Source: Candidatus Brocadia sp. (lineage in GTDB: Bacteria > Planctomycetota > Brocadiia > Brocadiales > Brocadiaceae). Taken from it: 32,000 nt of DNA. Below the pieces are notes generated by a model. It worked only from the letters and a program-made list of their open reading frames with translations, was not told the DNA's origin and ran no database searches. Location of the stretch: NCBI GenBank assembly GCA_021650915.1, contig CP091279.1, positions 30,001-62,000 on the forward strand. Direction: 5' to 3'. Position numbers and translations under genes: made by a program. Below are positions 3,796 through 30,310 of this stretch, one piece after another. Positions within the stretch are counted from its first letter, which is position 1. Each line of letters opens with the position of its first letter.

Positions 3796-3991
3796 AAATG
3801 ATCCTGATTTGCTTGATTTATAAGCAAAAAGCTCATAAATTGTGAGCCCTTACACGATACTGGCAAAAAGGGGATTGGATACTTTTCATATCATTCTGTT
3901 GATTATGGGTTGACATATTTTGCGGTATACGATAACATGCTGACAGCAATAAAATAAAGAGAAAAAAGCAATACTTTAGTTCTTTGAAAAA

Positions 3992-5372
3992 TTAACAAGC
4001 GATTTTGCAAGCAAACCCAGAAGGCGTTTTCACCATAAGGGCATTTTTTGCGCTAGCCAGAAGATTTTCCACTGGATTGATTCTTTGTAATTCAGCAGAA
4101 CGAAGCAGAGACATAAGGATGGCCTGTGTCTTAGCGCCATCCTCAGAGCGGTTCTGCTGTGAGACCTTTCTGGTCAATACTGGCTTTCGCATCTGTTGCT
4201 CAGCATGGTTGTTATAGGGACTGACATCCTCATGTTCCAGGAACGTAAAGAGTTCCTGTTTATGGCGGTTCAGGCGTTTGGTCAATCTTTGTGCATCTTT
4301 GTGCATCTTTATCCTGGCAGGGTGTTGCCAAAAACTGTTCAAGCCTGCAATACAGTCTATTTTTGAGCCTGAGAAAGCATGCCGGGTTTATCTGGTGCTT
4401 TTTCTCGGATAGCCGGATGGCATCCCTGAGTAATCGGGAGAGTTTTCTCCTGAAACTTTTCCATGAGACAGAATGGTTGTAGGTGTCTACTTTCACGAGT
4501 TCCGTAAAGAGATGATAGAAACACCGCTGCTTTGCCAGTGCGCTTGTCTTGTTATAAGCGCCCCAGAAGTCGCAGATCAGGATGCCCTTGAAGAGTCTGC
4601 CTAAGAACCTTTTTATGACAGGCGACCCCCGATTCCGTGTTATAAGGTAGTAGCAGAGGGTTTTGGTGGTAAAACACCATAACCAATGGGTTTTTCCATT
4701 CAACCGCCACCCGGTTTCATCTGCGTGCAAGACGGCGCTGGTAGAGACCTTTTGTCCAATATCGTTATACTGTGGTTCCAGGAGTGTTGCAAGAGCCTTC
4801 CAGGCCTGGGTTAAACCACCGGCGCTTACGTGAAGATTGAAAAATACGGAAACCATCTTTACAAGGTTGTTTACACTGATACCGACTACGTAATGAAGCC
4901 AGGCGGTAAAGACAACGAGGCGCAATCCGAGTCGGGCGTTTGGCAAGGCATCGGTGAGCGCGGGCTGAACGATCTTTTTGCAACAAGCACACCAGTAGCC
5001 ATGAACCGTATGTTCCGTCACGACAGGGTCGACCCGGGGGATATCCTCGATGTATCGCTTATACGTTCTCACCGGCTTTTGTAATGACTGCTGGCAGTCA
5101 GGGCACCTCTCCAGGGTATGTGTCTTATAGGCAGTTATGGTTTCCGGTCGTCTTCGGGAAACCCCCTTATGTCCTGGTTTTCTGCCACAAGGTCGTTTTC
5201 TCTTTTTACGGGTAGGCTTGAGATAAGGTGGCGTCATGCCCGAAGGGGTAGTTGGGCTTGGTTTATCGCAGAGTCGGTCATACTTCTCTGCCTTCCCGGC
5301 CAGTATCAGGATGACTTGAATCGCATCCTCTCTGTTCATCTCCAGGATGGCTCGGGCTTCATCCCTGGTCAT
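3992..5372 (-). pseudogene. IS66-family transposase (TnpC-like), frameshifted by a 10-bp tandem duplication
   Basis: Zinc-finger motifs CPDC...CACC, LHADETGWRLNG, WLWCF and a C-terminal NNHAEQQMR are present. The gene is split into ORFs 4260-5465 and 3992-4342. TCTTTGTGCA occurs twice in tandem at 4287-4306, and KDAQR is encoded twice. The likely start is MTRDEARAILE at 5372. Confidence 0.85.
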
Positions 5373-6240
5373 GAGCAAGAAGCCTCCGGAAATTTTTCTC
5401 AAGAGGATACAGGTAGAGTTCCTTCGTCTGGCCATGATACCGATAGGTATTGCCCCGTTTTGCACTGCCTTTGGTTTTTCCTACACGGAGCCAATTAGCT
5501 GCCTGATAGCAAGTGCCTTGAAATCGCGCGGTATCAACAAAGGTCTCCGCCAAATACACGGGATGTCCGTAGACAGCTTCCCAGTCATCTGACAAACGCT
5601 TGAGGGCAAGGGATAATACCTTGGATGCAAGGTGTTTGACCGTAACCCAGGGGGGAATGAGGAATCGCACGTTACTGGCAATTAAATGCAAGTGGGTGCG
5701 TTTGGTGGTCTCATCCCATCCGATGAAACGGTCACGGTCTTTGACCTTCCATGCTGCGCTTGCCCATCCAAGACAGGCAACGACCTGATTGCCGATATGT
5801 ACGATGTGCCTGACGTGTTCGCCAACAAGCCGGGGACATCCGAGGTAGTGGTAGTGATAGAGGAGATAACCCCAGAGGTAACTCTCTTGAGGGTCTTTTA
5901 CCACCTGGATCGTCGGGATTTCATACCCGGTGATAGTGCCTCCCAGTGTGCTTTTGACAAAAAGGGGTATCTGATCAAATATCTTAGGTTTCAGATTGTT
6001 TTTTGGTCGTATGCGGCCTGGAAGCGCTACCAGGCCCTGTTCTTCCAATCGCAGAAGGAGGTCTCGTGCCGCGTATTCTTTCAGCTTGCCATTGGGCTGC
6101 ACCCAGTTCCAACTTTTGCAAAGTTCACGGGAAATATAACTCCGCCCTTTGAGAAAATAACTATCAATGAGCGCCTTGATAAAGGCTATATCGTCTGTAT
6201 GCAGTTTCCGTGAACGGTATTGGAATAGTATAGGCTTCAT
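5359..6240 (-). CDS. DUF4338-domain protein encoded inside the IS66-like element
   Basis: The C-terminal 165 aa or so are clearly homologous to the N-terminus of ORF 23414-24781. Shared motifs are YHYLG, GW.AAAWK, RDR.IGW, N.RFLI.P, LAS, KRLS.DW, Y.HP.YLAETFVD and F.GTCY.A. The stop overlaps the likely transposase start. Confidence 0.8.
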   Translation of the reverse strand: MKPILFQYRSRKLHTDDIAFIKALIDSYFLKGRSYISRELCKSWNWVQPNGKLKEYAARDLLLRLEEQGLVALPGRIRPKNNLKPKIFDQIPLFVKSTLGGTITGYEIPTIQVVKDPQESYLWGYLLYHYHYLGCPRLVGEHVRHIVHIGNQVVACLGWASAAWKVKDRDRFIGWDETTKRTHLHLIASNVRFLIPPWVTVKHLASKVLSLALKRLSDDWEAVYGHPVYLAETFVDTARFQGTCYQAANWLRVGKTKGSAKRGNTYRYHGQTKELYLYPLEKNFRRLLAHDQG

Positions 6241-6431
6241 AAACAGGTTCCTTTTCTCTGAAGCCTTTTATACCACAAAGGGAAAACTGACGCCAGCTTT
6301 TTTGTATCTTAACGCCCTGATGGTTAAAACGCCTTCTGGGTTTGCTTATAAAATCGCTTGTTAATTTTTCAAAGAACTAAAGTGTTACGCTTTTATCAAT
6401 CTTTGCGGCAGAATATAACTGGAGGTGTGTT

Positions 6432-6639
6432 GTGACAATTATTTATTGTATCGGTGGTATAATTTCTCTTCTTTTATTTATACTCAAGATGTTCATAAAA
6501 TGTGAATTTTAAATTGATAATAAGGTGGCATGGACAAACTCTGTTTGTCCGTGTTGAACTACTATGAATCACAAATTGTGAGCCTGTGGAGTATATCTAT
6601 CTCTTGATAGCGCTCCTCAAGCCGGAGGTCTTTTCATGA
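6432..6639 (+). pseudogene. kdpF: kdpF interrupted by a 113-bp MITE
   Basis: A GTG start follows GGAGG. The first part, 6432-6480, encodes (M)TIIYCIGGIISLLLF. The second part, 6596-6639, encodes YLLIALLKPEVFS*. Removing 6481-6595 restores a 30-codon KdpF-like ORF. Its stop overlaps the kdpA ATG (ATGA). Confidence 0.7.
6481..6593. mobile_element. MITE-like element (TACTC...GAGTA ends, TA duplication) with central hairpin GGACAAAC-TCT-GTTTGTCC
   Basis: Imperfect TIRs are TACTCAAGATGTTCATAAAATGTGAAT and ATTCACAAATTGTGAGCCTGTGGAGTA. TA flanks both sides (6479-6480 and 6594-6595). Related copies lie at about 28862-28965 and about 29385-29510. Confidence 0.7.
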
Positions 6640-7019
6640 ATTGGAACAGTGTTATTCAAGTCGCCATTTTTCTTGCCACAGTCATTTTGTTAGCTAAACC
6701 GCTGGGGACATACATGGCACGCGTATACGAAGGAAAATCTGCGGGTCTCAATGTAGTACTGGGACCTCTGGAACGTTGGATATACCGGCTTTCAGGAATA
6801 GAGACGGAAACAGGCATGTCATGGAAAGGATACGCCGTGGCGATGATGCTGTTTAATGGTATCGGCATAGTGGTAGTGTATACCCTTCAGCGTCTTCAGG
6901 CATATCTGCCTTTAAATCCCATGTCCATGCCAGGCGTTGCCCCGGATTTGGTTTTTAATACCGCCGTTAGTTTTGCAACGAATACGAATTGGCAAAGTTA
7001 CGGTGGTGAGACGACACTA
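6636..7019 (+). pseudogene. kdpA: kdpA (K+-transporting ATPase subunit A), N-terminal fragment cut by an IS
   Basis: MNWNSVIQVAIFL...NTNWQSYGGETTL is a typical KdpA N-terminus. The frame leaves KdpA sequence at 7020, where the IS inverted repeat begins. Confidence 0.9.
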
Positions 7020-9027
7020 ACCCGACTTTCGCAATTCGAGGGGTATACAACCCGCTAAGCCAGGAAAATCAAGGGGTCGTGTAAAAAGGTCGGCACTACA
7101 GGCCGACCTGCCCGGATACGTAAACCTTGGGCGGCGGTTGTTCAGGAAGCGTTAATCCCAACTGCGCCAAAAGGAGTAAAACGTCCTTCTCCGGCTGGGT
7201 ATAACGGCTCATGACAATATGACGGCCATCCGTGGTCGGTAAATGAACGTCTATCATTTGAATGCCCGACAGTTTTTCCAAAATCGCTTCAGACGTCAGC
7301 CCTCCGGCCCTCCCCCGCGCAAGATTGCGCAGTGTCGTGTGGAGACAAAAAGCCAAAAAGGAAACAAAGATATGGGCTTCAATTCTCCGTTCCAATTGAT
7401 GCCATAGGGGGCGGACGGAAAGAGACCCCTTCAAGTCCTTAAATGCCTGTTCTATCCGTGTCAACAGCAAATAATTTTCCCAGACGGTTTCTGGCGCGGT
7501 GGCCTGCATGTTGGAACGAAGCAAATAACGCCCCTCGCGCCGATACGCCTGCCTCAGATGTTCCCGATCCAAACTGAACCGGAACGTATTCTCATTGACC
7601 GGTTCCTGCGGTTTGGGAATGGAGATCGTGACCAGTCTGTAGTCTCGTCCGGCTTCTTTCTTTAACGCGCCAATATGCATGAGCAGGTCATCGCGCGTGA
7701 GGGCTTTTCGATTGCGAAGTTCGCGCAGACCCATCCACAAACGTCTGAGTCTGCGCCTACGCATGGCACGCTCCTTAGACACCCGGTCATGGCTTTCCAC
7801 GTAAACGTAAAACTCCGATTCCTGCCGAAGAACTTTCACGCGGACGCTCTCCCTCGCCCGCATCCAGGTTTGTTCGAGTAGCGGTTTTTCTACTCTCGTC
7901 AAATGCCCCTTCGGAGTCCCAACCAAATAATCAATCCCGCGCTCACGCATCTTTTCCAACATCTCCTCCGTTGGAATACCGCGATCCATAAGCCAGGTGC
8001 GCCGGAATTTCCCATACTGCTTTTCAATCCGATCCAGAAATTCCTCCAGCGTTGCGGCGTCTCTGGTATTGCCCGGATACACTTCGTAGGCAACGGGAAA
8101 TCCTTCCGGCGTTAACACCAATGCCACTACCACCTGCACGCAATCCGAACGTTTGTCCCGGCTATATCCAAACCGTTTCTTACTCCCCGATCCAGTCGGA
8201 GGTGGGTCACTTTCAAAATACGTACTCGTCAAATCATACAGCAGTACATCGTACTTCGCCCCAAAGAGCTTGCCCCACTTCTCCTTTAAATAGGCAAACA
8301 GCTCGTCCCGATGCTCAAGCAACAAATCCAAACAACGATACGCCTTGTCCTTCTGCGCCAGGGAATAATCCTCTCCCAGCAGATCGCCTATTGCGCTGCG
8401 CACGTACCACTCACGGTGAAAACGAAATTCGCTTCCCGGATCGATCAACCGGTAACAGACAAGCGCCTTCAGTATATTCAACCAGCTTGTCCCCTTCCGG
8501 CTTGACGGCAGACGCATCCTCCAGAATGTGTCCAGTTCCAGCATATTCCATACATACAATCCCAACCAGCTTGCTCCCCACTCCCGTGGATGGCGCAGCT
8601 CTATTTTGTCCAACCTCACCCGAACTGTCTCACCATCCGGTATCGGCATGGCTTCCCGGTCATCCGGAAACAATGCCAGTTGTCTTGGTTTCGGTTCTTT
8701 ACCCGACACCGCCTCTATCGTCCGAATCCACCCAGCCCGTTGATTGTCATTGAGTTCTCCCAAATAGAGAACCTGCCGTTGCACCACCCTTCTTCCGCTG
8801 ACCCGGCGGTTCTCTACCACGCTCCAATAACGGTGGGTTTTCCCATCTTTCGTTCGTGTCTTTTCCCGGAGAAACATGCGAGCATTTTCGCACTTCCTCC
8901 TGCATGCGTCAAGAGGGTAGGTCGGCACTACAAGCCGTTTTGAAAATTCACCCCTTGAATATCACGGGTTTCCTGGCGACTCTTGCCCAAAAATAAACTT
9001 TTTTGGGCGCGAATTGCGAAAGTCGGG
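7020..9027 (-). mobile_element. IS1634-like (IS4 superfamily) insertion sequence inside kdpA
   Basis: 18-bp perfect inverted repeats CCCGACTTTCGCAATTCG (7021-7038) and CGAATTGCGAAAGTCGGG (9010-9027) bound the element. CTA lies on both flanks (7017-7019 and 9028-9030). The kdpA reading frame resumes at 9031. Confidence 0.8.
7096..8877 (-). CDS. IS1634-family-like DDE transposase
   Basis: The ORF is long and intact. I chose the start MFLREKTRTKDGKTHRYWSVVENRR, because the ORF-track start at 8928 adds 17 aa that run into the IS end. The family call rests on the N-terminal motif and the size, from memory. Confidence 0.8.
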   Translation of the reverse strand: MFLREKTRTKDGKTHRYWSVVENRRVSGRRVVQRQVLYLGELNDNQRAGWIRTIEAVSGKEPKPRQLALFPDDREAMPIPDGETVRVRLDKIELRHPREWGASWLGLYVWNMLELDTFWRMRLPSSRKGTSWLNILKALVCYRLIDPGSEFRFHREWYVRSAIGDLLGEDYSLAQKDKAYRCLDLLLEHRDELFAYLKEKWGKLFGAKYDVLLYDLTSTYFESDPPPTGSGSKKRFGYSRDKRSDCVQVVVALVLTPEGFPVAYEVYPGNTRDAATLEEFLDRIEKQYGKFRRTWLMDRGIPTEEMLEKMRERGIDYLVGTPKGHLTRVEKPLLEQTWMRARESVRVKVLRQESEFYVYVESHDRVSKERAMRRRRLRRLWMGLRELRNRKALTRDDLLMHIGALKKEAGRDYRLVTISIPKPQEPVNENTFRFSLDREHLRQAYRREGRYLLRSNMQATAPETVWENYLLLTRIEQAFKDLKGSLSVRPLWHQLERRIEAHIFVSFLAFCLHTTLRNLARGRAGGLTSEAILEKLSGIQMIDVHLPTTDGRHIVMSRYTQPEKDVLLLLAQLGLTLPEQPPPKVYVSGQVGL

Positions 9028-29895: not shown

Positions 29896-29998
29896 TTTGC
29901 CAGAATAAGGCATAACGGTCTCTTGCTCTTGCAGTTAGAATGCATATCATGGTATATGCCGGAAGGGGGAAAAAGGCGTAACCCCCGATAAATGTGGC

Positions 29999-30310
29999 GT
30001 TCCCTGCTCTTTGAAGAGATGAAAGGGATTGAGAACAACAAAGTATCACCTATGTTATCATCCATCCAGTTTCCGGCGTTCCCTGCTCTTTGAAGAGATG
30101 AAAGGGATTGAGACGGTTTACCCAGATACAACCTGCACTCTCACCATACCAACCGTTTCGGTTCAATCGTGGACGATTGAACCAGCCTGGACGGGCAGCC
30201 CCAACCGCAGTTCCCTGCTCTTGGGAGAAATGAAAGGGATCGAGGCAGAGGTAGGGGCGTATTGCAATACGCTCCTACCAAAGTTTCCGGTTCTTGGGAA
30301 GAGTTGAGAC
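29999..30310 (+). CRISPR. Mini CRISPR array: 2 near-identical 37-nt repeats, 1 degenerate repeat, 1 internally deleted remnant
   Basis: R1 is at 29999-30035 and R2 at 30078-30114, both GTTCCCTGCTCTTTGAAGAGATGAAAGGGATTGAGAC, with R1 ending in A. R3 at 30210-30246 has 5 mismatches. The R4 remnant is GTTCTTGGGAAGAGTTGAGAC at 30290-30310. Spacers are 42, 95 and 43 nt. The strand is set by the ATTGAGAC 3' tail and by the degenerate repeats lying at the distal end. Confidence 0.8.

Follow-up and report, generated by a model that had tools for sequence, protein, structure and literature searches.

The 32,000-nucleotide (nt) stretch of Candidatus Brocadia sp. DNA analysed here (contig CP091279.1, positions 30,001 to 62,000; hereafter the window) carries, at 3968-6388, an inactivated copy of a widespread two-gene insertion sequence (IS) of the IS66 family, in which the first gene stands in place of tnpA and tnpB. 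The canonical IS66 family, as defined by ISfinder, has the organisation tnpA-tnpB-tnpC. Within the window element neither tnpA nor tnpB was found; the only open reading frame (ORF) between the left end and tnpC encodes a protein of 293 amino acids (aa), and no room is left for another. This protein matches the Pfam family PF14236, now named 'DruA' and formerly DUF4338, with 136 bits against a cutoff of 27 (Table 1), and is called DruA-like below; the two pieces of TnpC match PF03050 (E=2.5e-23 and 6.7e-11) and zf-IS66. These matches confirm an initial annotation, made from the sequence without database searches, which had described an IS66-like element with a DUF4338 gene and without tnpA or tnpB. 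The same annotation had given the element inverted repeats of 75 base pairs (bp). The repeats are real, but their length is 78 bp by comparison with relatives: a repeat finder placed the arms at 3952-4045/6311-6404 (94 nt, 86%), and the true tips lie at 6388 (GTAACACTTTAG...) and 3968 (...CTAAAGTATTGC). In the window copy and its two nearest relatives (loci L007 and L008) the repeats of ~78 bp take in the last ~25 codons of tnpC; because they include the tnpC end, a mirror copy of the coding sequence for the TnpC C-terminus lies at the DruA-like end (ORF 6167-6364, ending ...MVKTPSGFAYKIAC). In more distant relatives the repeats are only ~25 bp long.

In this copy a 10-bp tandem duplication interrupts the transposase gene, leaving separate ORFs at 4260-5465 and 3992-4342. 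Removal of one duplication copy in silico restores a tnpC ORF of 456 aa that starts at 5372 and overlaps the stop of the DruA-like gene by 14 nt, an overlap identical to that of intact relatives. The coupling of the DUF4338 gene to a TnpC-type transposase, as first proposed, therefore stands in the 14-nt overlap, although the TnpC of the window copy is itself frameshifted. A search around 3968-6388 for the 8-bp target-site duplication gave none. With a frameshifted tnpC, a mutated tip and no target-site duplication, the window copy is an immobile, decaying copy that retains an intact DruA-like gene.

Since the window copy has no target duplication, relatives were used to test whether the gene belongs to the element. 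The intact relatives are multicopy elements of 2.36-2.41 kb whose 8-bp duplications flank both genes. Nearest to the window element are L007:1559-3970 and L008:3152-5563, both from Planctomycetota, which show 88% nucleotide identity to it over the full length, have perfect GTAACACTTTAG tips and inverted repeats of ~78 bp, and in the case of L008 are flanked by the duplication AAAGAGTC. Duplications of 8 bp were seen at L002, L003, L004 and L008, and the tips of the relatives read GTAACAC.../GTATCA.../GTAAGA.... The homologue P0098 is present at five sites, four within a single sample, and is always followed by a 457-aa IS66 TnpC with the 14-nt overlap; its copies have common ends (GTATCATTTTAGCC.../...GGCTAAAATCTTAC) and differing 8-bp duplications (AAATTTTG, CCCTCTTT and AAAAATTC). 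More than 3,500 close homologues of the DruA-like protein, of ~292 aa, were found, and many of these come from metagenomic contigs whose length, ~2.36 kb, equals that of the element. A survey limited to one genome per species returned 60 DruA-like loci from Planctomycetota, Desulfobacterota, Gamma- and Betaproteobacteria, Anaerolineales, Methylomirabilis and Chlorobi; an IS66 TnpC lies directly downstream at 46 of them, and most of the others are fragments or contig ends. The TnpC of an intact relative scores 256 bits against NF033517 (cutoff 180). Further, the ratio of nonsynonymous to synonymous substitution rates (dN/dS), computed for the window copy against L007/L008, indicates similar purifying selection on the DruA-like gene (0.11) and on TnpC (0.14).

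Because the 8-bp duplications of intact multicopy relatives flank both genes, the DruA-like gene is an integral, translationally coupled part of a mobile IS66-type element and transposes with it. That the ORF might instead be a separate element inserted into an ordinary IS66, or a chance neighbour of TnpC, has virtually no probability left: nothing was found in its favour beyond the fact that the window copy, without a duplication, could not alone exclude it, and it is opposed by the lack of internal ends, by an overlapping gene pair kept across phyla and by target duplications that flank the whole two-gene unit. The initial annotation had named such an insertion as what would overturn its proposal, and the duplications round both genes together with the conserved pair rule it out. 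Deletion derivatives also occur (P0001; L001:5001-6599; L024), in which the DruA-like gene is intact or nearly so and most of TnpC is gone. P0001, also from Candidatus Brocadia and with 98% identity the best match of the window DruA-like protein, joins DruA-like residues 1-~273 to the TnpC C-terminus at a 'KEL' microhomology. At L045:25-2393 the gene after a DruA-like one (51% identity) is an overlapping ORF of 510 aa that has no Pfam match and could be an unrecognised transposase partner.

The element shares with canonical IS66 members a DDE transposase TnpC (PF03050/NF033517), zf-IS66, terminal inverted repeats of the GTAA type, 8-bp duplications in its relatives and upstream accessory coding that overlaps the tnpC start. 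It differs from them in having, instead of tnpA and tnpB, one unrelated gene of 293 codons and, in this subgroup, repeats of 78 bp. IS66 elements of the ISBst12 type have a single ORF, for TnpC only, with GTAAC tips and an 8-bp duplication. The window-type element resembles these in its tips, its 8-bp duplication and the absence of tnpA and tnpB, but unlike them it has a conserved second gene that overlaps tnpC by 14 nt. The window itself offers the contrast case, an intact element of the ISBst12 type at 21319-23037 that consists of DUF6444 and DDE_Tnp_IS66 and has neither a DruA-like gene nor tnpA/B; the DUF6444 N-terminus is absent from the DruA-associated TnpC.

A second DruA-like domain lies in the same window, as part of a different kind of transposase. 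The ORF at 23414-24781 combines DruA (residues 29-175; PF14236, E=2.3e-25) with DDE_Tnp_1_assoc and DDE_Tnp_1, and its start in relatives is the ATG at 24766. The NCBIfam ISAs1 model NF033564 matches this ORF (ORF1, E=1.4e-44) and the ORF that continues the transposase (ORF2, E=3.2e-16). The DruA regions of the two window proteins share 42% identity over 191 aa (E=9e-48), and the core of the fusion aligns with the stretch 100-290 of its stand-alone counterpart; the ~100 residues before that stretch are missing from the fusion, as they are from most of its more than 6,000 relatives. The initial annotation was therefore right that one DUF4338 module is also fused to the N-terminus of an ISAs1-type transposase, and the possibility it had raised against itself, that the two regions belong to different families, is answered by the match of both to PF14236.

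The element that encodes the fusion is bounded by a 9-bp duplication (GCTGGGTAC, at 24860-24868 and 21082-21090) and by inverted repeats CAGGGCTACGTCAAG/CAGGGTAACGTCAAAG, and is split by the nested IS66-family element. Its larger part is nearly identical to L078:995-2816, which belongs to a multicopy ISAs1-type element with a consensus of 2,043 bp. Like other members of the ISAs1 family (NF033564) it has DDE_Tnp_1_assoc and DDE_Tnp_1, short inverted repeats (CAGGG...) and a 9-bp duplication; unlike them it has an N-terminal domain of the Gcn5-related N-acetyltransferase (GNAT) type, whose predicted fold is described below, and a frame broken at a conserved T/C tract that needs a +1 shift. The full ISAs1-type transposase requires this +1 frame change at a T3-5C5-6T tract. 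Among ISAs1-type cluster representatives, 115 of 117 stay in a frame that ends shortly after "F(P/S)PSAP" and 2 read through. Five distinct elements share the tract and the +1 relation, including a Thiodictyon plasmid copy annotated by the Prokaryotic Genome Annotation Pipeline (PGAP) as two genes, and tract sites elsewhere lie at L068:4167-4176, L069:3520-3529 and L051:1781 and 4155. The conserved tract suggests programmed +1 frameshifting or transcriptional slippage; we know of no description of either for the ISAs1 family.

The surroundings of the fusion are a nest of insertions. Within 21082-25892 the ISAs1-type element lies inserted in an ORF for a group II intron reverse transcriptase/maturase (24840-25892, cut at 350 aa) and itself contains, as a further insertion, the IS66-family element at 21319-23037. 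Rfam, applied to the window at gathering thresholds, gave no matches and hence no group II intron RNA. The idea that the intron had split off the N-terminus of the fusion was considered and rejected, given the end of the ISAs1-type element at 24859, the 9-bp duplication and relatives that likewise have no N-domain. A 51-nt remnant at 1051-1100, far from the full copy, is 88% identical to positions 35-85 of the ISAs1-type left end.

Table 1. Positions of the two DruA-bearing elements and their parts in the window, and counterparts of Mom residues in the DruA-like protein.
Feature	Position	Strand	Remarks
IS66-family element, whole, decayed copy	3968..6388	genes on minus strand	2,421 bp
Terminal inverted repeat, DruA-like side	6311..6388		tip GTAACACTTTAG
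Terminal inverted repeat, TnpC side	3968..4045		contains tnpC 3' end; tip GCAATAC vs GTAACAC, 2 mismatches to consensus
DruA-like gene, 293 aa	5359..6240	-	PF14236 E=2e-39; intact ORF
IS66 tnpC pseudogene	3992..5372	-	PF03050 and zf-IS66 on both ORF pieces
10-bp tandem duplication	4286..4305		TCTTTGTGCA x2; frameshifts tnpC
ISAs1-type element, left 1,822 bp, with GNAT-transposase fusion	23038..24859	-	98% identity to L078:995-2816
ISAs1-type element, right ~230 bp	21091..21318	-	split off by nested IS66 insertion
ISAs1-type ORF1, 455 aa	23414..24781	-	GNAT core, DDE_Tnp_1_assoc and N-terminal part of DDE domain
T4C6 tract	23453..23462	-	transposase frame shifts +1; junction kept in relatives
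Nested single-ORF IS66-family element, 1,719 bp	21319..23037	+	inverted repeat GTAACTATTCAGCG; 8-bp duplication TTGGTAGG
Counterpart of Mom H58/Y59	H131/Y132 of DruA-like protein		motif YHYLG; alignment
Counterpart of Mom S124	S206 of DruA-like protein		motif LAS; alignment
Counterpart of Mom D149	D236 of DruA-like protein		motif ETFVD; alignment
Counterpart of Mom Y159	Y245 of DruA-like protein		alignment
Counterpart of Mom N163	N249 of DruA-like protein		alignment

The association with transposases reaches well beyond these two elements. An exhaustive representative search for the DruA-like domain (clusters at 50% identity, E<=1e-3) returned 7,972 clusters, and 118 of the top 150 representatives were scanned for further domains. 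Transposase models were found in the same polypeptide for ISAs1 (14 proteins), IS701 (6), IS4/Tn5-like (5 or more), IS66 (3), IS630 (2) and IS3/IS481-type (1) families. The DruA-like domain is N-terminal in the ISAs1, IS701 and IS4 fusions; in the IS66 fusions (P0306, P0337 and P0276) TnpC is N-terminal and the DruA-like domain C-terminal, the reverse of the two-gene order in the window. Two-gene pairs with DDE_Tnp_1/IS4 transposases occur at L050 and on a Thiodictyon plasmid, and a search of a plasmid database returned two Thiodictyon records only. The module is thus portable, having been taken up by unrelated DDE transposases of at least six IS families, IS66 included, which extends to IS701, IS4/Tn5, IS630 and IS3/IS481-type transposases what the initial annotation had proposed from the window alone. 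Public annotation calls these proteins "DUF4338 domain-containing protein" or "ISAs1 family transposase". Full-text literature searches on DUF4338, PF14236, DruA, IS66/ISBst12 and Mom with GNAT and transposase turned up no account of the association with insertion sequences; ISfinder, which lay outside this search, may catalogue single elements. The two-gene IS66 element with a Mom-like GNAT gene is apparently undescribed.

What kind of protein is being recruited can be approached through its predicted structure. An AlphaFold2 model of the stand-alone protein, built from a diverse alignment, reached a pLDDT (predicted local distance difference test) score of 92.4; it superseded a first model from a shallow alignment (63-88% identity), with a pLDDT of 70, that had given only non-significant GNAT matches. 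In the model, a small N-domain of three helices and a beta-hairpin (residues ~1-67) is joined through a linker to an alpha/beta GNAT domain (~100-290). The structure prediction recommended in the initial annotation thus yields a GNAT fold, in agreement with a published analysis that identified DUF4338 as a GNAT domain and reported its fusion to DndF (PMC10853773). The top match of the model in a Foldseek search of the PDB is Mom (8bv8_B, E=9.8e-7, template modelling (TM) score 0.57 on the target), followed by 222 GNAT matches at E<=1e-3, and in BFVD a phage Mom ranks 5th (E=4.5e-8). The Pfam Mom model (PF25680) matches 6 of the 118 representatives, of which one, the best-scoring fused protein P0289, lies above the cutoff (29.6 against 27.1 bits), and an hhalign comparison of the DruA-like and Mom-family profiles gave E=0.0016 over 152 columns. 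Judged from model and profiles, the nearest characterised relative of the predicted GNAT domain is the Mom protein of phage Mu. At the sequence level the PDB gave no match, whether searched with one protein or with a profile, and NCBIfam has no model matching the DruA-like protein. Many of the phage matches in BFVD, proteins of 500-700 aa annotated 'endonuclease-like' or 'homing endonuclease', hold a domain that structurally matches the GNAT of the DruA-like model, and Mom-like GNATs may also be linked to other mobile-DNA nucleases.

With Gly-tRNA(Gly) as donor, Mom attaches glycine to the N6 position of adenine in double-stranded DNA; its residues R111, S124 and R151 are essential, H58, Y59, D149 and Y159 make further contributions, and a helix-turn-helix (HTH)-like insertion (residues ~175-209) is essential for activity (PMC13219725). 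Of the seven catalytic residues, five align with invariant or near-invariant residues of the DruA-like proteins (Table 1), and a D-x-R spacing in the ISAs1 fusions resembles D149-E-R151 of Mom. In conservation sets of 120 ISAs1 fusions, 39 long fusion representatives and 79 short representatives, H131, R192, S206, E232, Y245 and W250 are 95-100% conserved in stand-alone proteins and fusions alike, and D236 is D or E. The acetyl-CoA loop motif [QR]xxGx[GA] is missing in 61 of 64 DruA-like and 51 of 57 Mom-family sequences. The putative active site is, on these alignments, under strong constraint, and the module would appear to be an active enzyme, a Mom-type acyl- or aminoacyl-transferase, not a passive DNA-binding adaptor. 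The latter, a non-catalytic DNA-binding or targeting adaptor on a GNAT scaffold, is in line with the end recognition, targeting or regulation that the initial annotation had envisaged for DUF4338, and it would suit both the position of the domain N-terminal to transposase DNA-binding domains and the extra helical N-domain of the stand-alone form. It is nevertheless quite improbable, in that the residues of the Mom catalytic set are 95-100% conserved among proteins of only 30-45% overall identity, a pattern typical of active enzymes.

The likeness to Mom is that of a best solved structural match (PF25680; 8bv8), a GNAT without the canonical acetyl-CoA loop in which counterparts of H58/Y59, S124, D149, Y159 and N163 are conserved. 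The differences are nonetheless substantial. Identity is ~15%, the window protein falls under the Pfam cutoff and R111/R151 are not column-matched; the DruA-like protein has no HTH-like insertion, having an N-terminal helical domain or a fused transposase instead. Mom, finally, is phage-encoded, whereas the DruA-like protein is encoded by insertion sequences.

To the mechanism that we favour we give a probability of about one half. In it a GNAT enzyme would reach DNA through its N-domain or, in the fusions, through the transposase and its DNA-binding domains, and would there covalently modify nucleic acid, most probably the DNA of the element, of its target or of their vicinity. The modification would be part of transposition or run alongside it, and might serve to mark or license the ends or the target sites, or else to protect the element's own DNA. 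The overlapping start in the IS66 type and the +1 junction in the ISAs1 type, if they limit downstream translation, would give more GNAT-containing product than full-length transposase. N-terminal helices in the stand-alone protein, and transposase DNA-binding domains in the fusions, are present where the insertion of Mom is missing.

Several observations weigh against this proposal. The window protein scores only 17.6 bits against PF25680, under the cutoff of 27.1, and the hhalign comparison of the two profiles carries a probability of only 16%. The R111 and R151 columns of Mom differ from those of the invariant R192 and R238/239, which lie close by, and the HTH-like insertion of Mom (175-209) has no counterpart in the DruA-like profile, where a gap faces it. 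For the N-terminal ~100 residues Pfam gave no match even at E<=10, so that an HTH-like or DNA-binding role for the N-domain would derive only from predicted helices. Likewise, we infer the role in transposition from gene order and fusions, and the transferase chemistry is inferred for every member of the family; the substrates of GNATs are not predictable from the fold (PMC13219725). Lastly, the intact DruA-like gene beside a degraded TnpC (L001, L024 and P0001) could reflect a benefit independent of transposition.

Such a benefit is what would be expected if the gene were cargo, that is, a Mom-like anti-restriction or defence-related DNA-modifying gene that helps the host or the element after horizontal transfer. 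The loci just named fit this idea, as does the supply by the same Pfam family of DruA, part of a defence system, and the biological role of Mom is protection from restriction (PMC13219725). Cargo would, however, be an unusual partner for in-frame fusion to a transposase, and such fusions occur in six or more IS families, with either partner first; the gene moreover stands where tnpA/tnpB would be, overlaps TnpC by a conserved 14 nt and has a dN/dS that matches that of the transposase. We regard a cargo role as distinctly unlikely. A toxin or addiction role for the GNAT was set aside, there being no partner antitoxin gene in the 2.4-kb element.

The fold also admits a different substrate. As a protein acetyltransferase, the GNAT would acylate the transposase or a host DNA-architectural factor and so regulate transpososome assembly, leaving nucleic acid unmodified. 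Most of the 222 significant structural matches are indeed protein or small-molecule N-acetyltransferases (for example HP0935, RimI, SpeG and Naa60), and fusion to transposases would suit modification in cis. Still, 61 of 64 members have no canonical acetyl-CoA loop motif, the best relative by structure and sequence, Mom, uses Gly-tRNA and double-stranded DNA (PMC13219725), and both the DndF fusions (PMC10853773) and the use of the Pfam family in Druantia point to nucleic-acid biology, which makes this alternative unlikely. Modification of DNA, the reading preferred here, can also be taken further: insertion sequences of at least six DDE families would then carry a Mom-type enzyme that puts an acyl or aminoacyl mark on DNA at the element or target, possibly by way of charged tRNA, as a private epigenetic or hypermodification system, and by extension DruA would provide a DNA 'self' mark in type I Druantia. 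In this full form the proposal is speculative and, to our minds, rather doubtful.

With respect to Druantia itself, the DruA-like protein resembles DruA of type I systems in belonging to the same Pfam family, PF14236 (136 bits). PADLOC DruA models gave no match of either window protein to any family at E<=0.01, and no druB-druE neighbourhood was found in the window or at related loci, which adjoin TnpC. The initial annotation had linked DUF4338 to DruA of Druantia; the Pfam name bears this out, but neither PADLOC nor druB-E context does so here. By context and PADLOC models the window proteins are not Druantia components, and the link exists only at the level of the Pfam family or superfamily.

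The implications nonetheless extend in several directions. The roles of IS66 accessory proteins are poorly understood, and here an entire subgroup has an enzyme-like protein of another kind where tnpA/tnpB would stand. Transposases unrelated to one another have repeatedly acquired this module, as a gene of its own or fused at the N- or the C-terminal end of the transposase. Given that the closest characterised relative aminoacylates DNA with charged tRNA (PMC13219725), a chemistry new to transposition may be put forward as a testable hypothesis. Further, a two-gene element of 2.4 kb offers an experimentally simple way to approach what DruA does in Druantia and what the GNAT fusions do in Dnd systems, and if the chemistry of the transposon-borne enzyme were solved it would inform the function of DruA.

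Insertion sequences are very numerous in the window as a whole; additional transposases lie at 17-832 (DDE_Tnp_1) and 18658-19668 (IS110), and the neighbouring genes include HAD hydrolase and kdpA fragments, topA and ribF. At 6636-7058 kdpA is cut to its first 140 codons and adjoins the gene of a 610-aa DDE_Tnp_1 (IS4-like) transposase (7096-8928). A Cas6 gene lies at 27062-28030, and ~2 kb downstream two identical direct repeats of 39 nt, 79 nt apart (29996-30113), may represent a minimal or eroded CRISPR array.

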